DNA of 64,000 bases from Rhodothermales bacterium (GTDB lineage: Bacteria; Bacteroidota; Rhodothermia; Rhodothermales; JAHQVL01), in NCBI GenBank assembly GCA_041391505.1, contig JAWKNW010000001.1:200410-264409 (forward strand), given 5' to 3'. Below the pieces are notes generated by a model. The model was given only the letters and a program-made list of their open reading frames with translations. It ran no database searches and was not told the DNA's origin. Positions 8,132 through 60,115 of this stretch are shown piece by piece. The number at the start of each line of letters is the position of its first letter. Within the stretch, counting starts at the first letter, position 1. Position numbers and translations under genes: made by a program.

Positions 8132-8575
8132 ATGCCCATATCTCGTGTGATGCTGTCCGCTTTCGCTACCCTGATCCTCGGGGCGGCGCTCGTACTGACG
8201 GGCTTCCAGCGCCCGTCGGCCGGCGATCCGGTCGTGACGATCCCGCAGGTGGATATCGTGGAGCAAACGAATGCGGCTACCCTCCGTTCCTCCCTCGACG
8301 GGCTCCCGCTGGAACGTCGCGAGGTGCCGGCCGAATCCCTGTCGTTCGTCGTCGCTTCGGGTGAAGTGCTCATCTTCAATCTGCCGACCTCTTTCGGTGC
8401 GCAGGAGATCGACACGTATCGGCTCAAACGCGCGCCGGCGCTCAGCTGGCTGGTGGAGCGCTCCTACTTCTGGCGCACGCTCGCCAAGGATGTCGGCGAG
8501 CATACGATCGTTTTTGAAGGCCTCGCCGGCGGACGCGTCGCGGAGGAGGTCTACGTCCTCGTGGATGTCCGCTGA
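8132..8575 (+). CDS. hypothetical secreted/membrane-anchored protein
   Basis: In-frame start MPISRVMLSAFATLILGAALVLTG (signal or anchor). No recognisable domain. An alternative start lies at 8150. Confidence 0.5.
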   Translation: MPISRVMLSAFATLILGAALVLTGFQRPSAGDPVVTIPQVDIVEQTNAATLRSSLDGLPLERREVPAESLSFVVASGEVLIFNLPTSFGAQEIDTYRLKRAPALSWLVERSYFWRTLAKDVGEHTIVFEGLAGGRVAEEVYVLVDVR

Positions 8576-12719: not shown

Positions 12720-12830
12720 GCCGCCCACCGTTGGTGGGCGGCGTGGAAGGTTCAGGGTTCAAGGTTTAACGTGTACCGTTCAAGGATCGGGTCCTGCCCG
12801 CCTTGAACTTCGAACCTCAAACCTCGAACC
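12720..12830. repeat. GC hairpin plus heptad-built palindrome (GGTTCAA family) between convergent genes; likely bidirectional terminator
   Basis: Hairpin GCCGCCCACC-GTTG-GTGGGCGGC (12720-12742). Then left arm GGAAGGTTCAGGGTTCAAGGTTTAAC (12746-12770) and complementary right arm CCTTGAACTTCGAACCTCAAACCTCGAACC (12801-12830). Confidence 0.8.
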
Positions 12831-24862: not shown

Positions 24863-24935
24863 GGGAGGGTTCAAGGTTTGAGGTTCAAGGTTTAAGGAAA
24901 ACGTCCTTGATCCTTGATCCTCAAACCTTGAACCA
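24863..24935. repeat. heptad-built palindrome (GGTTCAA family) between convergent genes
   Basis: GGGAGGGTTCAAGGTTTGAGGTTCAAGGTTTAAGG - AAAACGT - CCTTGATCCTTGATCCTCAAACCTTGAACC. It begins at the base after the glpF stop. Confidence 0.85.
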
Positions 24936-24958
24936 ACTGCGGGTGTCGCGAAATGCCG

Positions 24959-48661: not shown

Positions 48662-51600
48662 GTGCCACTCCCCCGGTCCATACACCGCTATTTGCTTTAT
48701 GCCGGCCTGGTCTGCTGCCTGTTGCAGCCCCAGGCTGCGCCGGTTTACGGCCAGGAAGCCCTGCGTCTTTCGCCGGAAAAAGCGATCAGCCAGTATGTCT
48801 TCGAATCCTGGCACGAGGACGATGGCCTGCCCCAGAGTTCCGTCATGGGCATCGCGCAGACACCCGACGGTTTTCTCTGGCTCGCCACGGATGAAGGACT
48901 GGTTCGCTTCGACGGCGTCGCATTCGATACCTTCGACAAGCGGACCGACGACGCCTTCGCGATCAACGACATCGTCACCATCCTGGCGGGTCGCGACAGC
49001 GTGTTGTGGATCGGCACCCGTGGCGGCGGCCTGCTTCGGTACGACGGGGCGTTTTCACGGTTCGACGAAGCCAGCGGGCTTACCAGCCATTTTATCACCA
49101 CCCTGTACGAAGACGCCGCCGGCACCATCTGGGCCGGCACGTACGGAGGCGGTCTGCTCGCCTACCGCGGCCCCGATGGCTTCGAGGCCTACGGCGCGGA
49201 CGCCGGCCTGCCGGGCGACTTTATCAGCGTAGTAGCCGAGGATCCATCCGGTCAGCTCCTCGTCGGCACCGAGGACGGGATCGTGCGCTGGGATGGCGAA
49301 CGGTTCGTTCGCGACGACCGCCCGGGCGCGCCCGCCGGCCTCATCAGCACCCTCTACGCCAACCCCGGAGGACGCCTCTGGGCCTCCACCGGCGAGGCCG
49401 GCCTGTACCTTCTCGAAAACGGCGCCTGGACCGACTGGACCGATCGTCTGCAACTCGGCGAAGGGTATGTGACGGATATGCTGTCGGACAACGCCGGCAG
49501 CACGTGGTTCGCCGCCACCGGTGGCCGGCTTTACCGCCTCGCCGGCAACGGCTTCGAGCCGTTCACCTCCGAAAAGGAATTCGCCACCAACGACCTGACG
49601 TCGCTGTTTCAGGATCGGGAGGGCAGTCTCTGGGTGGGCTCCCGCTTCGGGGGGCTCCACCGGCTTCGCAGCGGCAAGTTCACGCCGCTGGGCATGCCGG
49701 AAGGGCTGCCGAACGACCACGTCGCCTCGGTCTACGAGGCCCCGGACGGCTCGATGTGGTTCGGGACGGCCGAAGGAGCGGCCCGGATGCGGCCCGACGG
49801 GACGATCGAGCGGATCTCCACCGCCGAGGGCCTCGGGAGCGACGAGGTGCTGGCCATCATCGGCGATCGGGCCGGCAGGGTCTGGATCGGCACCTACGGC
49901 GGCGGTCTGGCGCAATGGGATAACGGCCGCATTACGCGGTATACGACCGAGCAGGGGTTGGTCAGCGACAACATCTTCGCCCTCTTCGTCGCGCCGGACG
50001 ATGCCCTCTGGATCGGCACCGACGCCGGCGTGGGACGCCTGGAACGCGGCGCCCTCACATCCATCACCAGCGCCGACGGGCTCTCGAGCGACTTTATCAC
50101 CGCCTTCGCCGCCGGCGCCGACGGCAGCGTATGGATCGGCACGTACGACTCCGGCATCAACCGGTACCTCGACGGCGCGATCACCGCCGTGAACATGGAA
50201 AGCGGGCTGAGCAGCGACGCCGTGCTCGCCCTCCACGGCGACGCGGGGGGCGACCTCTGGATCGGCACGTACGGTGGGGGCCTCAACCGCTTGCGCGGCA
50301 ATGACATCGTGGCCGTCACCCAACGGCAGGGGCTGTACAACGACAACGTATACGTCATCCTGGAAGACGCCGAAGCACGGCTCTGGATGACCTGCAACAA
50401 GGGCGTATTCCGGATCGACAAGGCCGATTTCGAGCGGCTGGCCGCCGGCGACACGACGGCTATCGCCGGCGTCGCGTTCGACCGCTCCGACGGCCTGCGC
50501 AATGCGGAAGGCCTCGGCGGGCAGCAGCCCGCCGGCTGGCGCTCGCGCGACGGTCGGCTCTGGTTCACCACCATCGCCGGCGCCGCCGTGATCGACCCGG
50601 CCGCGATCCCCTCGAACACCCTGCCCCCGCCCATCGCGATCACCGGGCTGTTCATCGACGACCGGGCCGTCGCCATCGATTCCACCATCACGATCCCCCC
50701 GGGCTCGCACAAACTGCGATTCGCCTATACCGCAACGAGCCTCATCAATCCGCACCGCGTCGCGTTTCAAACCATGCTGTCGGGCGCCGACGTTACCTGG
50801 GCCGAGCCGACGACGCGGCGGGAATCGTTTTACACCAACCTGGCCCCCGGCGACTACGCCTTCCATGTCCGCGCGCGAAACGACGACGGCGTATGGAACC
50901 ATCGCGCCGCAAAATTGAGCCTGTATCTGGAGCCGTACTTTTATCAGACCCTCTGGTTCAGGCTGCTGTGTCTCGCCGGACTGATCGGCGGCGTCTTCCT
51001 CGCCTATCGCGTGCGCATGCTCCAGATGAAGGCGCGCCAGGAGGAACTGGAGCGCACCGTGGAAGAGCGCACCCACGATCTGCGTATCGAAAAAGAACGC
51101 ACCGAAAAAGCCAAGGAAGTCATTGAGGCGCAGGCTGATAAACTCCGCGAGCTGGACCGTTTCAAGACCCGCTTCTTCGCCAACCTCTCGCACGAATTCC
51201 GAACCCCGCTGACGATGATCATCGGGCCGCTGGAAAACCTCATTTCCGGGGCGTACGGTTCGGTCAGCGAGGCGGCCGTCCGCCAGGGGCATATCATGCT
51301 CCGCAACGCGCAGCGGCTCCTTCGCCTGATCAACCAGCTGCTCGATCTGTCGAAACTCGAAGCCGGCAAGATGGAGCTGCGATCCCGCGAGCGCAACATC
51401 GTGCCTTTCGTCGAGGGCATCGTCTACTCGTGCCTCCCCCTCGCCGAAACCAAAAAGATCGCGCTCAACTTTACCAGCGACATCGAACAGGCGCCCCTGC
51501 ATTTCGAGCCGGACAAGCTGGAAAAGGTATTCTTCAACCTGCTCTCGAACGCACTCAAGTTCACGCCGGCGGAAGGAACGATCGACGTGACCGTCACCGA

Positions 51601-53230
51601 TCTGCCGACACCGACCGCCGCGATGCGGGAAGGGGCAATCCAGATCGCTGTGCGCGATACTGGCAAGGGCATCCCCGAGGGTGACCTGCCGCACGTGTTC
51701 GATCGCTTCCATCAGGTGGACGGATCCAACACGCGCGAGCATGAGGGCACCGGCATCGGACTGGCCCTCGTCCAAGAACTGGTGCTCCTCCACAAGGGGG
51801 AGATCGAGGTGGAAAGCACGCTCGGGGTCGGGACGACGTTCACGGTGCGCTTCCCGAAAGGCAAGGCGCACCTCAAGCCGGAAGAGATCGCGGTCGACAG
51901 CGACATCCCCGAGGCCATGCTGGCGCGCGGCGCGCTGACCGAACTGGCCATCGAGGGCGCCGACCTGGATCATGAGCCGCCCGCCGAAGCCGGCGATACG
52001 CCCGCTCCGGTAGCCAAGTCCGACAAGCTGGTCCTGGTCGTGGAAGACAACCCCGACGTCCGCGAATACGTTGCCGGCATTCTGGAGGCGACGTACCGGG
52101 TGATCACCGCCGTCGACGGGGTCGACGGGCTCGACAAGGCGCGGACGCAGATGCCCGACCTGATCGTGAGCGACGTGATGATGCCGCGGATGGACGGCAA
52201 CGAGATGTGCCGGCGGCTCAAGGAAGATCCGCGCTTCAATCACATCCCCATCATGCTCCTCACGGCGCGCGCCACGAACGACCTCCGGATCGAGGGCCTC
52301 GAAGCCCGCGCCGACGACTTCCTCGCCAAGCCGTTTAATGCGCGCGAGTTGATGACCCGCGTGGCCAACCTGCTCATCCTGCGCGAGCAGGAAAAGGAGC
52401 TCAAGCGCCTGAACGAGCACCTCGAAGTGGAAGTCGCCAACCAGCTCGAATTGATTCTCTCCGAACGGCTCAAATACGAGGCGGAGCTGCTGGTGGCGAA
52501 GGAGGAAGCCGAGCGCTCCTCCCGGCTCAAGTCGAGCATCCTCGACAACGTCAATCACGAGTTCCGGACGCCGATCGCCGGCATCGTCGGCAGCAGCGAC
52601 CTGCTGGCGATGGAAGTGCCCGAAGACCTCCGCGAACTGGTCGACATCATCAAGATCAGCGCCGACCGGCTGATGCGCACCCTCAACGCGGTGGTCGAAC
52701 TCGGGGCCCTGGAGAGCGAGAGCTACGTGCTGCATCCGTATCAAACGGATGTGCTCGACGTGCTGGAAGAGGTCCTCGAACAGCAGTTCGTGCGCGCCCG
52801 CTCAAAAGATCTCGACCTGCAGTACCAGGTCAACGACGAAAGCCTGCCGGCCGTGATCGATCCCATGGCCCTCCGCAGGGTGTTCGAACTGATCATCGAC
52901 AACGCGATCAAGTTTACGACCGAGGGATCGATCAACGTGCACGTCGAGAGCGACAGCGACGTGGTACAGATCCGCGTTCAGGACACCGGCGTCGGGATGG
53001 ATGCCGAGTTCATGCAGCACGTCTTCGAGGCGTTCGTCCAGGAAAGCAACGGGATGACGCGCGACTACGAAGGATGCGGCATCGGCCTGACGATCGCGCA
53101 TCGCCTCATCGACAAGATGGGCGGACAGATCCGCATTGAATCCGAAAAAGGAGTCGGCAGCACCTTCACGGTCGAGATCCCCGCCCGCGCCGGCAAATCG
53201 CTCGCCAATACGGAGATGGTTTATAATTGA
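48662..53230 (+). CDS. hybrid sensor histidine kinase/response regulator with periplasmic two-propeller + Y_Y_Y sensor and two kinase cores
   Basis: 1522 aa. Domain order: signal peptide; about 14 Reg_prop-type repeats (..W.GT..GL.....); TM helix LWFRLLCLAGLIGGVFLAY; HisKA (FFANLSHEFRTPL); HATPase (GTGIGLALVQELV); REC (VVEDNPDVREY...DLIVSDVMMPRMDG); second HisKA (ILDNVNHEFRTPIAGI); second HATPase (GCGIGLTIAHRLI). No HTH domain. Confidence 0.88.
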   Translation: MPLPRSIHRYLLYAGLVCCLLQPQAAPVYGQEALRLSPEKAISQYVFESWHEDDGLPQSSVMGIAQTPDGFLWLATDEGLVRFDGVAFDTFDKRTDDAFAINDIVTILAGRDSVLWIGTRGGGLLRYDGAFSRFDEASGLTSHFITTLYEDAAGTIWAGTYGGGLLAYRGPDGFEAYGADAGLPGDFISVVAEDPSGQLLVGTEDGIVRWDGERFVRDDRPGAPAGLISTLYANPGGRLWASTGEAGLYLLENGAWTDWTDRLQLGEGYVTDMLSDNAGSTWFAATGGRLYRLAGNGFEPFTSEKEFATNDLTSLFQDREGSLWVGSRFGGLHRLRSGKFTPLGMPEGLPNDHVASVYEAPDGSMWFGTAEGAARMRPDGTIERISTAEGLGSDEVLAIIGDRAGRVWIGTYGGGLAQWDNGRITRYTTEQGLVSDNIFALFVAPDDALWIGTDAGVGRLERGALTSITSADGLSSDFITAFAAGADGSVWIGTYDSGINRYLDGAITAVNMESGLSSDAVLALHGDAGGDLWIGTYGGGLNRLRGNDIVAVTQRQGLYNDNVYVILEDAEARLWMTCNKGVFRIDKADFERLAAGDTTAIAGVAFDRSDGLRNAEGLGGQQPAGWRSRDGRLWFTTIAGAAVIDPAAIPSNTLPPPIAITGLFIDDRAVAIDSTITIPPGSHKLRFAYTATSLINPHRVAFQTMLSGADVTWAEPTTRRESFYTNLAPGDYAFHVRARNDDGVWNHRAAKLSLYLEPYFYQTLWFRLLCLAGLIGGVFLAYRVRMLQMKARQEELERTVEERTHDLRIEKERTEKAKEVIEAQADKLRELDRFKTRFFANLSHEFRTPLTMIIGPLENLISGAYGSVSEAAVRQGHIMLRNAQRLLRLINQLLDLSKLEAGKMELRSRERNIVPFVEGIVYSCLPLAETKKIALNFTSDIEQAPLHFEPDKLEKVFFNLLSNALKFTPAEGTIDVTVTDLPTPTAAMREGAIQIAVRDTGKGIPEGDLPHVFDRFHQVDGSNTREHEGTGIGLALVQELVLLHKGEIEVESTLGVGTTFTVRFPKGKAHLKPEEIAVDSDIPEAMLARGALTELAIEGADLDHEPPAEAGDTPAPVAKSDKLVLVVEDNPDVREYVAGILEATYRVITAVDGVDGLDKARTQMPDLIVSDVMMPRMDGNEMCRRLKEDPRFNHIPIMLLTARATNDLRIEGLEARADDFLAKPFNARELMTRVANLLILREQEKELKRLNEHLEVEVANQLELILSERLKYEAELLVAKEEAERSSRLKSSILDNVNHEFRTPIAGIVGSSDLLAMEVPEDLRELVDIIKISADRLMRTLNAVVELGALESESYVLHPYQTDVLDVLEEVLEQQFVRARSKDLDLQYQVNDESLPAVIDPMALRRVFELIIDNAIKFTTEGSINVHVESDSDVVQIRVQDTGVGMDAEFMQHVFEAFVQESNGMTRDYEGCGIGLTIAHRLIDKMGGQIRIESEKGVGSTFTVEIPARAGKSLANTEMVYN

Positions 53231-53301
53231 AGGGTTCGAGGTTTGAGGTTCAAGGTTTAAGGTAAGCCGCCTTAAACCTTGAACCTCAAACCTCGAACTC
53301 T
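53231..53301. repeat. heptad-built near-perfect palindrome (GGTTCAA family) exactly filling the gap between two convergent stop codons
   Basis: AGGGTTCGAGGTTTGAGGTTCAAGGTTTAAGG - TAAGCCG - CCTTAAACCTTGAACCTCAAACCTCGAACTCT. About 32-bp stem. Confidence 0.9.
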
Positions 53302-54447
53302 TCAATTCCGCACCGTCTTCAAGAGCACCCCGTCTACCCCGTGGATGCGCATGTCGATGAGTTGCTGGAGGGTCGGGGTATAGCCGGCCTCTTTCACTTC
53401 CCGGATGAAGCGCTCGCTGACGCCGTGGATGCGCAGCTCGACGAGCCGGTCCAGCGACACGTCGCGATAGCCTAAATCCGCCAGCCCACCGATGAATTCC
53501 GTCGATACGCCGTGGATCCGCAAAGCGACCAGGCGATCGACATCGGGCCTTTTGTAGCCGAGAGCCTCCAGGTCGCGCACGAACGCCGGCGAAACGCCAT
53601 GGATGCGCATCGCCTGGAGCTGATCCATCGTCAGGGAGCGATACCCCGCGCGGGAAAACTCGTCGATGTACGCCACGGTAACCCCGTGGATGCGTGCCGA
53701 CACCAGGTTATCCACCGTGAGCTTCGGAAAGCCCGCCTTCGCCATCTCCGCGACGAACTCCGGCGTCACCCCGTGGATACGCATCGCCGTCAGCTGATCG
53801 ATCGAGAGGTCGGAAAAGCCGGCCTTCGCCATCTCCGCGATGAACTCGGGCGTCACCCCGTGGATGCGCATCGCCATCAGGTCGTCCTTCGGGATGTCGC
53901 GGTACCCGGCGGCTTGCAGGGATCGGATAAATGCGGGCGAGACGTCGTGAATCCGCATCGCGACGAGGTCGTCGTACGGGAGGCCGGCGTAACCCAGTTT
54001 CCCCAGTTCCTCCACGAACGGGATGGTCACGTCGTGGATCGCAAGCGTGAACACCTGGCTCAGCGTGAGATTCGCATACCCCAGCCGCCCCATGGAGCGG
54101 ACGTAGGCGTCGTCCGTGGTGAAGGTGAAGGACCCTGAACCGGTCTCGTCGACGAACTGCCCCGTGAAGACGAACTCGCCGGCTTCGCGCCGCATCGTGA
54201 AGGTGACGTCGGCCTTCCCGCTGTTTCCGGGCGCGATCGCCATGCCGTCCAGGTCCTTGAGCGGCAGCTGGGTGCTGAAGCCGTGGCGCTCGCCGTCGGC
54301 CGAGGCCCGGATCGTCACCCAGAGCGATTCCGTGACCTGGTGCCACCGGTTGTGCTGGAATTCGCCGATCCACGTCCCTTCCATGCGGTCCGCCGGCGCG
54401 GCGCCCATCGTGAGCAGGACGGTGAATAAAAGGGCTAGTCGTGTCAT
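53302..54447 (-). CDS. secreted protein: about 130-aa N-domain plus about 9 tandem 29-aa IHGV(S/T)PEF repeats (paralogous to the BlaR1-like C-terminus)
   Basis: Start MTRLALLFTVLLTMGAAPA at 54447. Repeats such as IHGVTPEFIAEMAKAGFSDLSIDQLTAMR occur 8-9 times. Last gene of the blaI-blaR1 transcription unit. Confidence 0.7.
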   Translation of the reverse strand: MTRLALLFTVLLTMGAAPADRMEGTWIGEFQHNRWHQVTESLWVTIRASADGERHGFSTQLPLKDLDGMAIAPGNSGKADVTFTMRREAGEFVFTGQFVDETGSGSFTFTTDDAYVRSMGRLGYANLTLSQVFTLAIHDVTIPFVEELGKLGYAGLPYDDLVAMRIHDVSPAFIRSLQAAGYRDIPKDDLMAMRIHGVTPEFIAEMAKAGFSDLSIDQLTAMRIHGVTPEFVAEMAKAGFPKLTVDNLVSARIHGVTVAYIDEFSRAGYRSLTMDQLQAMRIHGVSPAFVRDLEALGYKRPDVDRLVALRIHGVSTEFIGGLADLGYRDVSLDRLVELRIHGVSERFIREVKEAGYTPTLQQLIDMRIHGVDGVLLKTVRN

Positions 54448-54549
54448 GGGTTTCTGGATTCGGGTTTTGGGATGCGGGAAGGACGCACCTCGCCCGGGGC
54501 GCCCCAAAACAGCGCCCTCAAGGTCCGATGCTTGTTGTCCGATGTGATC

Positions 54550-57084
54550 CTACCGGTTGCCCCGGAGTGATTTGACGTACTCCGCGTCCACGCCGTGCCG
54601 GCGCATGTCGATGAGCTGCTCGATCGTGACGTCGCGGAGGCCGGCGTCGCGGATGTCGCGGACGTACTCCGCATCCACCCCCTGACGCCGGAGTTTGAGC
54701 AGCTGCTCCGTCGTCGCGTCGATGCCGAGGGCCTTCATCTCGCCGATGTATTCGGCGTCGAGCCCGTATTTGCTCATCTGGATGAGTTCTTCGATCGACA
54801 GGTTCGCGATCCCCTGCTCGCGGAGGCCATCCACGAGATCCGAATCGACCCCGTATTTGCTGGCGGCGATGAGTTCGTCCGGCGACACCTCGCTGTAGCC
54901 GGCACGCGCCAGGGCTTCGACGAGCTCCTGGTCGACGCCGTATTTGCTCATCCCGACCAGGTCATCGAGCTTCAGGTTTTTGTACCCTGCTTCGTTGAGG
55001 GTCGCGACCAGCTCCTCGTCGACCCCGTATTTGCTGGCCATGATCAGCTCCTCGGGCGACACCCGGTCGTACCCGTAGCGGTTCAGCGTTTCTATCAGGT
55101 CGGCATCGACGCCGTACTTGCTCATGGCGACCAGGTCATCGAGGGTGAGGTCGGTGTAGCCGGCTTTATCCAGGGTCGCGACCAGATCCTGGTCTACCCC
55201 GTATTTGCTCGCCTTGATCAGTTCGTCTACCGGGACGCGATCGTAGCCGTGCCGGCTGAGCATGTCGATCAGCTCGATATCGACGCCGTATTTGCTCATG
55301 GCCACCAGATCCTCCCGGGAGAGGTCGGTATAGCCGGCGTCGCGCATGGCGCGGACAAAGTCCAGGTCCACCCCGTACTTGCTCATCGCCGCGTAGTCTT
55401 CGAGCGTCAGGTCGTCGAATCCGATATCCCGCATCCGGGCGATATACTCGGCATCGGCTCCGTAGCGGCCGAGCATAATCAGATCGGCATACGTGAGGTC
55501 GTTGAAGCCCATGGCCCGCAGCGACTTGATGAACTCCGCATCCACCCCGTACTGACGCAGCTTGATGATCTGGTCGATCGAGAGCGAGTCGACCGGGGTG
55601 TGGTCGTGGGATTCCTCACCGCCCTGCCAATCGATCGCGGGGATATCGATGTCGATGTCCGGGATGTCGATGTGCAATGCCGGGAAATTGAAGTCGAATC
55701 CGGGGATATCGATATGCATTTCGGGAATGTCGATATCGATCGGCGGGATGTCGATGTCGATATCGGGCACGTCGATATCCATCTCGGGCACGTCGATGTC
55801 GAAATCCGGGATGTCGATGTCGATATCGGGCACATCGACGTCCACGTCGATCGGTTCGTGCACCATGCGCGGCGCCGGCGGCCGAGGCGGTGTCGGCCGC
55901 GCCTGCTGGGCCTGTGCCGGCTGCAGCGCGGCGAGGGGCAGCACGAGGCTGGCGACGAGCGAGAGGGTCAGCATCGTGCCCAGCCGGTTCTGGCTGCGCC
56001 GGCGGAACGGGTCGAGGATCGAGAGCAGCCGGCCTTCCAGCTGCGAGCCGCGCGCCATCGAGACGGCCGCGACGGTGGACCACTCCGCTTTCTTGAGCAT
56101 GCGCGCCGTTTCCAGCAGCGTTTCAGCGTACCGCGAGGGGTCCGCGCCCGAGACGAGCACGAGATCGTCGCACGACCGTTCCCGCTCGATACGCATCTGC
56201 CAGGCGGCCATCCATACAAGCGGATTGAACCAGTACACCGCGCACACGATGTTCGTCAGCAGCTGGAAGAGGCAATCGTACCGTTTGATGTGCGCGAGTT
56301 CGTGCAGGAGCACGGATTCCTTGCGCGCCTCGTCCCACGCATCCGCATCTTCCGGCAGCACGACCACCGGGCGCCAGACACCGATCGCCATCGGCACCGA
56401 GGTCCACGAGCTCATCCGGAGCCGCACCACCCGCCGGATCCCCATCCGGCGTGCGGCCGCTTCGGCCATCAGGTGCCAGTTCTCGTCGTCCACGAACGAC
56501 GCGCGGTTGACGAGCAGGCGGGCGCCGGCGTGGGCGAGCACGAGGCGAACGATGACCGCCAGCGCCCCGAGCGCCCAGATCAGAAAGGCCCACTGCGTCC
56601 AGTGCATCCGGCCGACCGCCTCCCGCACCGAAGCAGGCATCCAGGAAAACGACGGCGTAACAGCGTCCTGATAGACGGGCGCTGCAGCAGCCGCCGGCGC
56701 GACAGCTCGCGACGGCGCCGCGGGCGCCGGTTTCGCGGCCGGCGCGGGCGTGACGGCAGGCGCCGCGGCAGGCTTCCAATCGGGCTCGTTCGCCGGGGAC
56801 GCCGGAGCCGGCGCATCGGCCTGCTGGGGCGCGGGCGTGACCTGCGGCAAAAACGCCACCTGCCAGGCCGGCACGACCTGCCCGATAAACGGCAGCAGGA
56901 AGACGCCGAGCAGGGCCGAACACCAGATCATATAACGGGTCGCCGCCGCGCTGTGCCGCAAGGCATAGGTCAGCAGGCCGGCGGCCGACAGAAGAAGCGT
57001 CCCCTTCGCGAGGATAATGGCCATGTCCGAGGCCCAGGGGCGCAGATCGGAGGCCAGAGTCGGAATGTCGATAAGGAATAGCAT
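54550..57084 (-). CDS. BlaR1/MecR1-type M56 peptidase signal transducer with non-canonical repeat sensor domain
   Basis: 844 aa. TM helices, a Pro/Ala-rich loop and the M56 zinc motif LLHELAHIKRYD. A final TM helix (LTLSLVASLVLPLAAL) is followed by DIDIP octad repeats and 11.5 copies of the 29-aa YGVD repeat. The start is 1 nt after the blaI stop. Confidence 0.85.
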   Translation of the reverse strand: MLFLIDIPTLASDLRPWASDMAIILAKGTLLLSAAGLLTYALRHSAAATRYMIWCSALLGVFLLPFIGQVVPAWQVAFLPQVTPAPQQADAPAPASPANEPDWKPAAAPAVTPAPAAKPAPAAPSRAVAPAAAAAPVYQDAVTPSFSWMPASVREAVGRMHWTQWAFLIWALGALAVIVRLVLAHAGARLLVNRASFVDDENWHLMAEAAARRMGIRRVVRLRMSSWTSVPMAIGVWRPVVVLPEDADAWDEARKESVLLHELAHIKRYDCLFQLLTNIVCAVYWFNPLVWMAAWQMRIERERSCDDLVLVSGADPSRYAETLLETARMLKKAEWSTVAAVSMARGSQLEGRLLSILDPFRRRSQNRLGTMLTLSLVASLVLPLAALQPAQAQQARPTPPRPPAPRMVHEPIDVDVDVPDIDIDIPDFDIDVPEMDIDVPDIDIDIPPIDIDIPEMHIDIPGFDFNFPALHIDIPDIDIDIPAIDWQGGEESHDHTPVDSLSIDQIIKLRQYGVDAEFIKSLRAMGFNDLTYADLIMLGRYGADAEYIARMRDIGFDDLTLEDYAAMSKYGVDLDFVRAMRDAGYTDLSREDLVAMSKYGVDIELIDMLSRHGYDRVPVDELIKASKYGVDQDLVATLDKAGYTDLTLDDLVAMSKYGVDADLIETLNRYGYDRVSPEELIMASKYGVDEELVATLNEAGYKNLKLDDLVGMSKYGVDQELVEALARAGYSEVSPDELIAASKYGVDSDLVDGLREQGIANLSIEELIQMSKYGLDAEYIGEMKALGIDATTEQLLKLRRQGVDAEYVRDIRDAGLRDVTIEQLIDMRRHGVDAEYVKSLRGNR
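54553..55560 (-). repeat. coding tandem repeat, 87-nt period (about 11.5 copies of the 29-aa YGVDxE(L/F)(I/V)..L...GY..L...(D/E)L(I/V).MSK unit)
   Basis: Read directly from the translation of 54550..57084. Confidence 0.85.
55631..55852 (-). repeat. coding micro-repeat (GATATC/GATGTC hexamers; 24-nt super-period) encoding (D-I-D-I-D-I-P-x)n
   Basis: Plus strand: GGGATATCGATGTCGATGTCCGGGATGTCGATGTGCAATGCCGGG...GGGATGTCGATGTCGATATCGGGCAC, repeated. The protein reads IDVDVDVPDIDIDIPDFDIDVPEMDIDVPDIDIDIPPIDIDIPEMHIDIPGFDFNFPALHIDIPDIDIDIPAIDW. Confidence 0.9.
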
Positions 57085-57085
57085 G

Positions 57086-57481
57086 CTAGTTTTCCTCCTG
57101 TTGTTTGGCCTGTTCGATCAGCGCGGACAGCCGGTCGAGGTCGGAATCGCTCAGTTCATCTCCTTTCAGATCCAGCAGCGCCGATACGACGCGGTCGGCG
57201 GATCCGTTAAAGAAAGCCTGCACCATGTAGCTCATGGCGGAGCGGCCGGCTTCGTCCGGCGAAATCGTCGGTGAAAAGATGTAGCGCGCCCCGTCGCGGC
57301 GGTGCTTGAGGTGCCCCTTCTCTTCCAGGATACGCAGCATCGCGCGCACCCCGGAGTACGTGGGCGGATCGACGATCCCTTCCATCACTTCGGCGGCCGT
57401 CGCCTCGCCCCGCTTGTAGATGAACGTCATGATCTGACGTTCGCGGGCGCCAAGGTCCATCGGCGATTTTTTTCGTTTCAT
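57086..57481 (-). CDS. BlaI/MecI/CopY-family transcriptional repressor
   Basis: 131 aa. Winged helix with ERQIMTFIYKRGEATAAEV...YSGVRAMLRILEEKGHLKHRRDGARYIF. C-terminal dimerisation helix. Confidence 0.88.
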   Translation of the reverse strand: MKRKKSPMDLGARERQIMTFIYKRGEATAAEVMEGIVDPPTYSGVRAMLRILEEKGHLKHRRDGARYIFSPTISPDEAGRSAMSYMVQAFFNGSADRVVSALLDLKGDELSDSDLDRLSALIEQAKQQEEN

Positions 57482-57537
57482 AGCGGTTTTGTCGCGTGGA
57501 TCGCCCCCTGCCGACAGGGCTTCGGGCGATTCGTCTA

Positions 57538-57553
57538 TGCTAGAATACTAGCA
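57538..57553. promoter_or_regulatory. candidate BlaI-family operator dyad 1 (TGCTA-N6-TAGCA)
   Basis: TGCTAGAATACTAGCA is a perfect 6-4-6 palindrome, 57 nt upstream of the blaI start. Confidence 0.55.
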
Positions 57554-57599
57554 CCCTACGGGCAACATACGGAGAAGATGCAGCGGCGTCAATAGAATA

Positions 57600-57615
57600 T
57601 GCTACTTTTATAGCA
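57600..57615. promoter_or_regulatory. candidate BlaI-family operator dyad 2 (TGCTA-N6-TAGCA)
   Basis: TGCTACTTTTATAGCA has the same half-sites and spacing as dyad 1. The centres are 62 bp apart. It lies 79 nt upstream of the hmgA ATG. Confidence 0.5.
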
Positions 57616-57693
57616 CTTTTTCTGAATGAAACCCCCGCCGGCCCGAATTGTGAAAGCAAAAGACGTTCAACCCTGAACCGCGAGGACCCCGAC

Positions 57694-58872
57694 ATGCCCA
57701 TCTACCATCGCCTTGGCGCCATGCCCGCCAAACGCCACACCGTGTTTCAAAAAACCGGAGGCGGGCTCTATCATGAAGAACTCTTCGGGACGATCGGCTT
57801 CGACGGGATGTCGTCGCTGATGTATCACATCCACCGCCCGACGATGGTGAAGGAGATCGCCGGCGCGGCGGATGCCGCCCCCAAGATCGCGGTCGACCGC
57901 AACCTCAAGGCCCGGCTCTTCAAGGGATTCCAGATCTCGCGCCGGGACGACTTCCTCCAGAGCCGCGAGACGCTGCTCGTCAACAGCGACATCCACATCG
58001 GTCTGGCCGCGCCCCGGACCTCGATGACGGACTACTTCTACAAAAACGCCGACGCCGACGAGTTGCTCTTCATCCACGAGGGCCGGGGCACGCTCCGCAC
58101 CATGCTCGGACGCATCCCGTTCGAACCGGGCGACTACGTAGTGATCCCGCGCGGCACGATCTATCAGATCGATTTTGAGACCACGAGCAACCGCCTGCTG
58201 TTCGCCGAATCCTTCCACCCGATCTATACGCCGAAGCGGTACCGCAACTGGTACGGCCAGTTGCAGGAGCACGCGCCGTTTTGCGAGCGGGACTACATCC
58301 TCCCGCGCGACCTGGAGACGCACGACGAACTGGGCGACTTCGTCATCAAGATCAAGAAACAGGGCATGCTGCACGAGGTCGTCTACGCGGCGCACCCGTT
58401 CGACCTCGTGGGCTGGGACGGCTACAATTTCGCGTACGGCTTCTCCATCCATAACTTCGAACCCATCACGGGGCGCATCCACCAGCCGCCGCCCGTGCAC
58501 CAGACGTTCGAGACCACCGCGTTCGTCGTCTGCTCCTTCTGCCCCCGGATGTACGACTACCATCCCGACGCCATCCCCGCCCCGTACAACCATTCGAACA
58601 TCGACTCCGACGAGGTGCTCTATTACGTCGACGGCGACTTCATGAGCCGCAACAACATCGATCGGGGCCACATCACCCTGCATCCGGGCGGCATCCCGCA
58701 TGGGCCGCACCCGGGGGCGTATGAGCGGAGCATCGGCAAGAAGGAAACCCAGGAGCTGGCCGTCATGATCGACACGTTCAAGCCGCTCATGGTCACCGAA
58801 AACGCCCTGGCGCTGGACGACGGCGCCTATTTCCAATCCTGGCTTGACCAGCCGCTCAACATCATCACCTGA
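57694..58872 (+). CDS. hmgA: homogentisate 1,2-dioxygenase (short, about 390-aa form)
   Basis: MPIYHRLGAMPAKRHTVF...GLYHEELFGTIGFDGMSSLMYH and the cupin core. Followed by fumarylacetoacetase. Confidence 0.85.
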   Translation: MPIYHRLGAMPAKRHTVFQKTGGGLYHEELFGTIGFDGMSSLMYHIHRPTMVKEIAGAADAAPKIAVDRNLKARLFKGFQISRRDDFLQSRETLLVNSDIHIGLAAPRTSMTDYFYKNADADELLFIHEGRGTLRTMLGRIPFEPGDYVVIPRGTIYQIDFETTSNRLLFAESFHPIYTPKRYRNWYGQLQEHAPFCERDYILPRDLETHDELGDFVIKIKKQGMLHEVVYAAHPFDLVGWDGYNFAYGFSIHNFEPITGRIHQPPPVHQTFETTAFVVCSFCPRMYDYHPDAIPAPYNHSNIDSDEVLYYVDGDFMSRNNIDRGHITLHPGGIPHGPHPGAYERSIGKKETQELAVMIDTFKPLMVTENALALDDGAYFQSWLDQPLNIIT

Positions 58873-58879
58873 CCGGCCC

Positions 58880-60115
58880 ATGCCCGCATCGTGGATTCCC
58901 ATTCCCGCCGATTCTGATTTCTCGCTTCACAACCTCCCGTTCGGGATTTTTTCCGCACCCGGCCGGCTCCCCGGGGCCGGCGTGGCCATTGGCGACCAGA
59001 TCCTGGACCTGGCCGCCGCGGCGTCGGCCGGCCTCTTCGAGGGGCTGACACTCGACGCGTCCGTATTCCGCCAGCCCTCGCTCAACGCCTTCATCTGGCT
59101 CGGCAAGGGGATGACGAACGCCGTTCGAGACCGCATCGCGGCGACCCTGGTGGACCCGGATTCCCCGCTGCGCGGCTCCAGGGCGCTGGTGGCCCAATCG
59201 GACGCCACGATGCATCTGCCGGTGGAGATCGGGGACTATACCGACTTTTATTCGAGCATCGACCACGCGACCAACGTCGGCAAGATGTTTCGGGACCCCG
59301 ATCATGCGTTGCTGCCCAACTGGCGGCATATCCCGGTCGGGTACCACGGCCGCGCCTCTTCGATCGTCGTGAGCGGGACACCGATACGCCGGCCGTGGGG
59401 ACAGGTGCTTCCCCCAGCCGCCGAGTCGCCCATCTTCAAACCCACCGGCCGGCTCGACTTCGAACTCGAGGTCGCCTTCGTGATCGGAAAAGACAGCGAC
59501 CTCGGCGATCCCGTACCGCTCCACGATGCCGAGGCGTACATCTTCGGCCTCGTCCTGTTCAACGACTGGTCGGCCCGCGACATCCAGAAATGGGAATATG
59601 TGCCGCTCGGCCCGTTCCTCGCCAAAAATTTCGGCTCCTCGATGTCGCCCTGGGTCGTTCCCCTCGAAGCGCTCGAAGCCTTCCGGATCGCCGGCCCGAT
59701 CCAGGAGCCGGCCGTCCTGCCCTACCTGCGCAGCGAACATCCGGGGCATTTCGACATCCCGCTCGAGGTGAGCCTCACCCCGGAGGACGGACCGGAGACC
59801 GTGGTGAGCCGTTCGAATTTCCGGCACCTTTACTGGAGCATGGCCCAGCAACTCGCGCATCACACCGTGAACGGGTGCAACGTACGCGTGGGCGACGTCC
59901 TGGCCTCGGGCACCATCAGCGGTCCGGACGCCGGCGCCTACGGCTCCATGCTCGAACTGGCCTGGGGCGGCAGCAAGCCGCTATCGCTCGCCGGCGGAGC
60001 CTCACGCGCCTTCATCGAAGACGGCGACACGGTCACCCTGCGCGGACAGGCCCGAAAAGGCGTCATCACGGTCGGGTTCGGGGAAGTCCAAACCCGGATT
60101 CTACCCGCCCGCTGA
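58880..60115 (+). CDS. fahA: fumarylacetoacetase
   Basis: Start MPASWIPIPADSDFSLHNLPFGIFS at 58880. DYTDFYSS, GYHGRASS, FELEVAFVIG, FGLVLFNDWSARDIQKWEYVPLGPF. Confidence 0.9.
   Translation: MPASWIPIPADSDFSLHNLPFGIFSAPGRLPGAGVAIGDQILDLAAAASAGLFEGLTLDASVFRQPSLNAFIWLGKGMTNAVRDRIAATLVDPDSPLRGSRALVAQSDATMHLPVEIGDYTDFYSSIDHATNVGKMFRDPDHALLPNWRHIPVGYHGRASSIVVSGTPIRRPWGQVLPPAAESPIFKPTGRLDFELEVAFVIGKDSDLGDPVPLHDAEAYIFGLVLFNDWSARDIQKWEYVPLGPFLAKNFGSSMSPWVVPLEALEAFRIAGPIQEPAVLPYLRSEHPGHFDIPLEVSLTPEDGPETVVSRSNFRHLYWSMAQQLAHHTVNGCNVRVGDVLASGTISGPDAGAYGSMLELAWGGSKPLSLAGGASRAFIEDGDTVTLRGQARKGVITVGFGEVQTRILPAR

Follow-up and report, generated by a model that had tools for sequence, protein, structure and literature searches.

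A BlaI/M56 operon with a 29-residue repeat array in a Rhodothermales bacterium, and its secreted paralogue as a candidate trans-acting sensor subunit

Introduction

What might a BlaR1-type protease sense when its beta-lactam sensor is replaced by an array of short repeats, and what role could a secreted protein carrying a related array have when its gene lies immediately downstream? This question is raised by three genes in a 64,000-nucleotide stretch of DNA from a Rhodothermales bacterium (assembly GCA_041391505.1, contig JAWKNW010000001.1, positions 200,410 to 264,409), which is referred to here as the window and is numbered from its first letter. The minus strand of the window carries three open reading frames (ORFs) head to tail, encoding a repressor (R), a membrane protease (M) and a secreted protein (S), with the boundaries that a preliminary description of this DNA had assigned to them.

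That description had interpreted the locus as a BlaR1-style switch tuned to a different envelope signal. This stands insofar as R and M are a genuine BlaI/M56 pair and M has no penicillin-binding domain, but such an arrangement is not novel and is already the rule for M56 proteins. Only about 6% of these carry a transpeptidase domain, and 'M56 + no identifiable domain' is the commonest of 254 M56 architectures in the study of Kurtz et al. (PMC13492132). In this work we have defined the module that lies in the place of the beta-lactam sensor and asked what S contributes. We consider that there is about an even chance that R, M and S form an autoregulated BlaI/M56 proteolytic switch for a non-beta-lactam envelope cue, in which S is a trans-acting sensor subunit.

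Results and discussion

The repressor gene (57086..57481, minus strand) encodes a 131-aa winged-helix protein of the BlaI/MecI/CopY family, which matches Pfam PF03965 (Penicillinase_R) over the entire model (positions 1-115 of 115; E 6e-26; 91.5 bits, cutoff 22.6) and can be aligned by phmmer, over residues 6-75, with Bacillus licheniformis BlaI (1P6R; E 5e-4). M begins 1 nt past the stop codon of R (54550..57084, minus strand, 844 aa) and is an M56 zinc metalloprotease with a predicted periplasmic repeat array, as judged from its match to Pfam PF05569 (Peptidase_M56; E 2e-38) and from BlaR1 profile and fold matches. Thus, the two Pfam matches and the 1-nt spacing bear out the preliminary identification of a 131-aa BlaI-type repressor and an M56 protein in the canonical adjacent order. 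R was also considered as a CopY-type copper sensor, but a search of its sequence for the C-terminal Cys motif (CxCx4CxC) found none and this candidate was therefore rejected; the score against NCBIfam CopY_TcrY was 45.9 bits (cutoff 122).

The catalytic core of M is well conserved. The zinc-binding motif HELAH, noted previously, lies at residues 261-265 (56290..56304, minus strand), and the third-ligand motif E302-x3-D306 follows downstream; H261, E262, H265, E302 and D306 are invariant across 33 homologues, and the two motifs align with HEYAH and EVEAD of BlaR1. Furthermore, the M-family profile matches Staphylococcus aureus BlaR1 (8EXS) at E 9e-13, and an AlphaFold2 (AF2) model of M (overall predicted local distance difference test score, pLDDT, 77; confident protease core) matches BlaR1 8exr_A in Foldseek with a template modelling (TM) score of 0.59, normalised by target. 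The model places transmembrane helices at residues 15-41, 47-70, 162-194 and 367-386 and leaves a Pro/Ala-rich loop (78-139) and residues 392-491 disordered. The core is thus that of a four-helix gluzincin, with HExxH and a downstream Glu ligand between the third and fourth membrane helices. By homology to the BlaR1 cryo-EM structures (PMC9834060), the protease side would be cytoplasmic and the array side periplasmic, the chain leaving to the periplasm after the fourth helix (residues 367-386; 55927..55986, minus strand).

Beyond that helix, M no longer resembles BlaR1. A Pfam scan of M found no match to the transpeptidase/penicillin-binding domain PF00905, and NCBIfam NF000326 (blaR1_generic) covers the protease half only (M residues 163-389 against model positions 103-332 of 585; 105.9 bits, cutoff 400), so that M indeed appears, as first described, to have no penicillin-binding sensor. 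Instead, the C-terminal 450 residues are modelled as a spacer and helical repeats. The spacer (residues 392-491; 55612..55911, minus strand) is a Pro-rich segment with about 10 acidic heptads and is predicted to be disordered (pLDDT 31-38). The preliminary description had counted about nine D-I-D-I-D-I-P-x octads here; the acidic repeats are real, and Tandem Repeats Finder also returns nine copies, but their 21-nt period makes them heptads of the pattern P-[DE]-x-[DN]-[IV]-[DE]-[IV] (P-D-I-D-I-D-I type). Such heptads are confined to Rhodothermales M56 orthologues, whereas other phyla use ordinary Pro/Ala/Ser linkers; that they act as a spacer or bind cations is a guess.

The array itself (54553..55587, minus strand) consists of 11.5 helical hairpins of 29 residues, the number originally reported, with the consensus SKYGVDxDLIxxLxxAGYxDLSxDDLIxM and a net charge of -29. 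A hidden Markov model (HMM) of the repeat matches 12 times between about residue 500 and residue 844, at a spacing of 29 residues except for one of 28, and the AF2 model shows paired 9-residue helices throughout residues 503-842 (pLDDT >90). The encoding DNA has a two-unit super-period of 174 nt (76-79% identity). Repeat number varies from 8 to 14 units among M orthologues, with recent two-unit duplications, and the junction in Rhodothermales M units is S-K-Y-G. An exact look-up of M in public assemblies gave no record; its closest relatives, in Rhodothermales metagenome-assembled genomes, are up to 58% identical.

S (53302..54447, minus strand) comprises 381 aa from its ATG; an alternative TTG start at 54507 is unlikely because homologues begin with M-[KR]-hydrophobic signal peptides. 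Its own predicted Sec-type signal peptide, MTRLALLFTVLLTMGAAPA (54391..54447, minus strand), has an equivalent hydrophobic N-terminus in every linked S homologue. The AF2 model of S (pLDDT 91.9, predicted TM score 0.81) shows a signal-peptide helix, a beta domain that we call Sn (residues 20-112) and an unbroken solenoid of 9-residue helix pairs with a 29-residue period. Where the preliminary description had a signal peptide and an N-domain of roughly 130 aa, an N-domain is indeed present, but its folded beta part is only about 90 residues. Sn (54112..54390, minus strand) is predicted to be six-stranded (21-31, 43-50, 57-62, 78-87, 90-99 and 102-111) and has the invariant columns G-T-W ... R-R-D-A-G-x-F-x-F-x-G. 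The S-type array (53305..54111, minus strand; net charge -7) has the consensus RIHGVSPEFIRxLxxLGYxxLSxDDLVxM and, in agreement with the approximately nine units first counted, gives nine repeat matches from residue ~113/136 to 381. Its R-I-H-G junction is near-invariant in S-type units (Ile in 445 and His in 444 of 446). Hundreds of relatives are 40-45% identical to S in alignments that span 92-97% of it.

Scans against Pfam-A (2025) and NCBIfam (2026), of the kind that the preliminary description had proposed, gave no convincing model for the 29-aa repeat array or for Sn, and an Sn alignment had no match at all in Pfam. UBA_3, Glycos_trans_3N, SAM_GIDA_C and Lysostaphin_N were rejected as identities for the repeat, their scores being summed sub-threshold matches to small helical bundles. 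Foldseek against the PDB returned only weak and inconsistent matches for Sn (the PilB N-terminal domain, CBF-beta, lipocalins and CYTH, all at E >0.04) and no natural fold for the whole S model. In the literature we found no paper describing the 29-aa repeat, and neither of two tandem-repeat screening studies mentions M56, BlaR or the repeat. Several S-family proteins (P0012, P0063, P0069, P0117 and others) are labelled IspH/LytB ('4-hydroxy-3-methylbut-2-enyl diphosphate reductase'), which is a mis-annotation because the Pfam LYTB score of about 26 bits (cutoff 24.5) is reached by adding up the matches of several repeats to one 40-residue segment of the model, no single one being significant.

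The family is nevertheless large. A search for S homologues returned at least 3,984 proteins, and an exhaustive family-profile search of sequences clustered at 50% identity found 5,186 cluster representatives, of which 3,900 scored E <=1e-10; the 29-aa repeats are far beyond chance. In a domain census of 341 family proteins there were three real architectures, namely Sn followed by repeats (154 proteins), M56 followed by Sn and repeats (97) and M56 followed directly by repeats (89), the remaining protein (P0348) being a tandem Sn-repeat-Sn-repeat form. Nine of ten long family representatives were confirmed as M56 proteins. Together, the census and these representatives identify Sn plus the 29-aa solenoid as a major sensor module of M56 proteins that has gone unannotated, hidden within the 'M56 + no identifiable domain' class. 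We define the module as an Sn domain of about 90 residues followed by 6-10 units with the junction R-I-H-G-[VA]-[ST]-P-E-F, either secreted or fused after the fourth membrane helix of an M56 protein. By its invariant columns, its matches and the census, S is a member. The module is spread over Acidobacteriota, Gemmatimonadota, Rhodothermota, Latescibacterota and others. Short Sn-only proteins also exist (P0241-P0304), though many of them may be fragments, and a search with Sn alone for other partners of this domain returned mostly short fragments. The whole Sn-repeat gene has been tandemly duplicated in loci L015, L106 and L117.

The strongest indication of what S does comes from the distribution of its fused and split forms. 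A free S follows none of the Sn-containing M56 proteins (0 of 5-7: L004, L013, L066, L081, L082 and, probably, L073 and a second L066 gene) as against 8 of 12 Sn-less M56-repeat loci (two-sided Fisher test, p 0.029 strict and 0.013 lenient). Similarly, all 22 distinct S-linked M56 proteins are without Sn, for which p is about 9e-8 under independence, taking 52% of M56-repeat proteins to carry Sn. The two forms are complementary, which suggests that a part encoded in cis in other lineages is provided here in trans, by S, and it is mainly for this reason that we see S as the supplier of an Sn module to M.

Gene order is consistent with this interpretation. Conservation of the three-gene arrangement had been put forward as a check in the preliminary description, and its outcome is mixed. 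The order BlaI, M56-repeat gene, free Sn-repeat gene does recur in Rhodothermales, Latescibacterota, Pyrinomonadaceae and Longimicrobium as well as on many contigs from soil metagenomes, but only about half of the S-family genes are linked to an M56 gene. Among 80 M56 loci sampled from species genomes, together with the orthologue contexts, 19 carry M56-repeat proteins; a free Sn-repeat gene lies downstream on the same strand in the window, L010, L012 (Rhodothermales), L014 (Latescibacterota), L015 (Pyrinomonadaceae, two copies), L016, L017 (Longimicrobium) and L020, and there is none in L007, L008/9 and L011. From the other side, 80 S-family metagenome loci include 16 with an M56-repeat gene directly upstream and a further 6-9 in which a truncated repeat ORF stands at the contig edge. 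From the stop of M to the start of S the median distance is 34 nt, and in five loci (seven contigs) the two genes overlap by 4 nt; where the genes are linked they are thus closely, and translationally, coupled.

The arrays themselves are clearly related, as was originally claimed, and S is a genuine paralogue of the family's sensor module, of ancient origin. S-type arrays are on average 43% identical across phyla, and the M and S arrays of one locus are 36% identical on average and 30% identical here. S arrays are thus more alike across phyla than M and S arrays are within a locus, which marks the two as old paralogues, each maintained separately.

The putative control region of the operon also resembles that of a BlaI system. 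On the minus strand, a promoter-like TTGACG-17-TATGTT (57564..57592), a pattern match from a consensus scan whose function for R-M(-S) is presumed, is bracketed by two exact operator-like dyads GTGCTA-N6-TAGCAT, the first (57599..57616) directly upstream of the -35-like hexamer and the second (57537..57554) beyond the -10-like hexamer, some 10 nt downstream. R therefore has the expected gene arrangement, lying upstream of an M56 gene with paired palindromic putative operators at its own promoter. The half-sites are TGCTA/TAGCA here, as opposed to the TACA/TGTA of the bla and mec operators. The core TGCTA-N6-TAGCA is found just upstream of BlaI genes in 39 other fetched loci from many phyla, and other clades have paired ACGAA-N4-TTCGT or GCGAA-N4-TTCGC dyads at the equivalent position. 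With these, paired-dyad autoregulation as in bla and mec would be a family-wide feature. Additional TGCTA-N6-TAGCA sites are present in M56 loci of other types (L024 8324-8339, L025 10358-10373, L027 10347-10362 and L036 10172-10187), approximately 2.3 kb past the beginning of the M56 gene, and may mark target genes of related BlaI proteins.

Our proposed mechanism is as follows. R dimers would occupy the two dyads that bracket the operon promoter. M, with its active site predicted to be cytoplasmic, would project into the periplasm an acidic disordered spacer of about 100 residues and a 340-residue solenoid of 29-aa hairpins. S would be exported to the periplasm; it corresponds to the Sn-plus-solenoid module in free form, which other lineages have fused after the fourth M56 membrane helix, and would most likely be a trans-acting co-receptor that cooperates with the Sn-less M array or acts on it. 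A ligand-dependent change at the arrays would then activate the protease, R would be inactivated, presumably by proteolysis, and the operon, S included, would be induced. The 103-nt spacer between M and S holds no separate promoter, terminator or structured RNA (structure z -0.06), which makes co-transcription of the two genes plausible in this genome. As to the cue, our guess would be either an envelope polymer of repetitive structure or a change in ions or pH, since the number of repeats varies, S has a ladder of His and Arg residues and the M array is strongly acidic. We speculate that repeat plasticity, the R-I-H-G ladder and acidity would be explained more readily by avidity for a repetitive or ionic ligand than by one binding pocket.

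Several observations weigh against this proposal. First, linkage is incomplete: several Rhodothermales M orthologues have no S, and among the S-family metagenome loci 25 informative ones have no upstream M56 gene as against 22-25 that are linked, so that about half of S-family genes stand apart (in L001, for example, beside RNase PH and Ham1 genes). Second, the nearest syntenic relative (L005, GCA_034439735.1; also L006) retains, at 8216-8461, only a 28-codon remnant that is 71% identical to S residues 20-47 and is followed by a deletion of about 1 kb. S was thus ancestral in the L005 lineage and was lost while R and M were kept intact, which makes it dispensable in this nearest relative; M in L005/L006 has 8 repeats, not 12. 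Third, no Rosetta-stone fusion in which M56 and its repeats are followed by Sn and further repeats was found among the 341 proteins, and there is no charge complementarity between the arrays of M and S, both being acidic. Finally, the window's M-S spacer is longer than that of most loci, and the C-terminal half of R gave no phmmer alignment to solved BlaI or MecI structures, so that the N101-F102 cleavage site could not be placed.

Two other explanations for S deserve to be weighed against these data. The better one, which we regard as possible but rather unlikely, is that S is a regulated output, a periplasmic binding or buffering protein that would be induced on inactivation of R and that shares its ligand with the M array and serves envelope protection or negative feedback. 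There is a parallel in the bla system, whose inducer is bound both by the sensor domain of BlaR1 and by the beta-lactamase or penicillin-binding protein (PBP) that it induces. S is the sole non-regulatory gene product of the operon and a paralogue of the sensor array, its gene is tightly coupled to that of M, and its dispensability in a close relative would suit an effector. Furthermore, both exact copies of GTGCTA-N6-TAGCAT in the 64-kb window lie at the R promoter, and no further operator site marking regulon genes was found there. However, S is missing from many R-M operons of this family, whose outputs must lie elsewhere; BlaI-M56 operons without S contain no output gene, and S therefore cannot be the universal output. 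Nor would an independent effector be expected to be so strictly absent after Sn-containing M56 proteins, and half of the S genes have no BlaI/M56 gene linked to them.

Still less likely, in our judgement, is that S is functionally independent of R and M, its adjacency having arisen from duplication and shuffling of the module, so that S has a general envelope role and the M array acts alone. The 25 informative unlinked loci, the loss of S from L005/L006 with retention of R-M, and the missing fusion and charge complementarity would all be accommodated in this way. Against it, about half of the S genes lie directly downstream of an M56-repeat gene in at least four phyla, some with 4-nt overlaps, and the complementarity of fused and split forms has statistical support. 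Thus, S as a sensor subunit acting in trans on an Sn-less M is the interpretation that we prefer.

The hairpins of these arrays also invite comparison with the repeats of transcription activator-like effectors (TALEs). Like the TALE and TALE-like repeats of dHax3, PthXo1 and BurrH (PMC4787788), they are tandem two-helix hairpins with an H-G-[LV]-T-P-E junction. The S-family profile matches TAL effectors in the PDB at a summed E of 8e-15, through the shared H-G-[LV]-T-P-E-x-[VI] junction, and dHax3 (E ~1e-4) and BurrH (E 0.016) are the top natural Foldseek matches to the M array. When 1,000 unit-shuffled arrays that kept repetition and composition were scored as a control, the real TALE array (46.6 bits) exceeded the best two (35.3 and 17.8 bits), which brings the match to p<0.001, not 1e-14. 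By contrast, an M-type profile search of the PDB did not detect TALEs, yet the M-type profile (A2) matches 8v2d_J, a component of a de novo designed helical-repeat nanocage, at E 2e-10; 8v2d_J is also the top or near-top Foldseek match to the S and M models (E 1e-4 and 7e-4). Since a designed protein scores in this way, E-values between hairpin-repeat arrays are inflated and do not imply homology. Globally, the M array superposes on TALEs with a TM score of at most 0.23 and a root-mean-square deviation of about 19 Å, and no TALE is among the top 50 Foldseek matches to the S model. Units of 29 aa, with a second helix about half as long, differ from the 33-35 aa of TALEs, and a search of the units for a hypervariable pair resembling the repeat variable di-residue (TALE positions 12/13) found none, the central loop having the conserved residues G17 and Y18. 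The arrays are also acidic (-29 and -7) and, given the signal peptide of S and the position of the M array after the fourth membrane helix, presumably periplasmic. We have therefore kept the likeness as an analogy only, since geometry, charge and unit length disagree and a designed protein scores comparably; it is probably no more than that, with a small residual chance of distant homology. That the repeats are true TALE-like repeats reading nucleic acid, for example extracellular DNA, in a DNA-sensing switch is, on these grounds, extremely improbable.

The surroundings of the operon offer little further indication of function. A gene for a 1,522-aa hybrid histidine kinase (48662-53230, plus strand) is convergent with S, and homogentisate-dioxygenase and FAA-hydrolase-like genes (57694-60115, plus strand) are divergent from R. 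In L005 the same order is found, with HgmA, FAA hydrolase, BlaI and M56 followed by a convergent Y_Y_Y hybrid kinase, the equivalent of the window's kinase, which has Reg_prop/Y_Y_Y domains. A functional tie of R-M-S to these neighbours was rejected, as the synteny is confined to L005 and the other orthologous loci do not share it. Where S and the kinase gene converge there is a perfect 29+6-bp hairpin (53225..53305; dG -58.4 kcal/mol, z -14.5), which is likely to be a bidirectional transcript end. It belongs to a family of hairpins resembling repetitive extragenic palindromes, with tandem GGTTYRA heptamers, of which the window has three copies at gene ends (53225-53305, ~12747-12818 and ~24866-24936). 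In one soil clade (L128 9163-13786; also L116, L121, L124-L126, L135, L136, L141 and L148), an S-family gene is convergent on a BlaI operon that encodes BlaI, a 326-aa M56/M48-like protease without a sensor domain and a CarboxypepD_reg/outer-membrane beta-barrel protein; it is a possibility that the free S serves this sensor-less protease.

Conclusions

The R-M pair resembles the BlaI-BlaR1 and MecI-MecR1 systems of Staphylococcus and Bacillus (8EXP-8EXT; PMC9834060) in its adjacent repressor and four-helix M56 genes, its HExxH and E-x3-D motifs, the C-terminal extracytoplasmic position of its sensor after the fourth membrane helix and its paired dyad operators in an autoregulated operon, which are putative here. 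It is different in that M has an acidic disordered spacer and a 29-aa solenoid instead of an SxxK transpeptidase-like sensor, that there is no beta-lactamase or PBP target gene and that the organism is diderm, so that sensing would be periplasmic. Also comparable are the atypical BlaIR systems, namely CenIR of Clostridioides difficile (PMC13492132), PvmSR of Pseudomonas aeruginosa (bioRxiv 10.64898/2026.08.03.742534) and mycobacterial BlaIR, in which an M56 protein and a BlaI-type repressor mediate a non-beta-lactam response and with which R-M shares the largest InterPro class, 'M56 + no identifiable domain'. However, the sensor tails of these systems are short, largely unstructured or absent, whereas M has a large array, confidently predicted to be folded and belonging to a family with over 5,000 clusters, and, in addition, a secreted paralogue.

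For a third gene there is also a precedent, as the co-transcribed MecR2 of the mecR1-mecI-mecR2 operon (PMC3406092) modulates a BlaI/BlaR-type switch, which is what we propose for S. However, MecR2 is a cytoplasmic protein that has no relationship to the sensor and whose target is the repressor, whereas S is predicted to leave the cytoplasm and is paralogous to the sensor module. Soluble periplasmic accessory sensors such as RseB (in the RseA/DegS/RseP cascade), LuxP (with LuxQ) and TorT (with TorS) are often encoded in the same operon as their partners and supply or gate ligand recognition. S would be like RseB, LuxP and TorT in its way of working only, there being no relationship of sequence or fold. 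To our knowledge, no M56 protease uses a periplasmic binding-protein partner.

Thus, the concept of a non-beta-lactam BlaIR system is already established (PMC13492132; the PvmSR preprint; mycobacterial BlaIR), as is the precedent for a third gene in MecR2 (PMC3406092). What is new here is the definition of the sensor module, the size of its family, the dichotomy of split and fused forms, which would imply a secreted sensor subunit, and the operator motif. A more far-reaching version of our proposal, which we hold to be very unlikely, is that S is a diffusible co-receptor docking array-to-array on the Sn-less solenoid of M, and that the hairpins are distant TALE relatives reading a linear periodic envelope polymer (e.g. 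glycan strands), one repeat per unit. If this were true, the system would be the first BlaR-type protease to depend on a binding protein. The family, with its more than 5,000 clusters, would then constitute a large periplasmic stock of modular solenoids for reading polymers, from which TALE-like repeats might have evolved.

In summary, this work draws one large structured module out of the M56 class with no identifiable domain, in a family where the M56/BlaI systems are widespread and approximately 94% of them are without a beta-lactam sensor (PMC13492132). The operator sequences, catalytic residues and domain boundaries described here are concrete handles for experiments. Furthermore, the fused and split forms of the module point to a trans-acting periplasmic sensor subunit, which would be without precedent in the M56 protease family.

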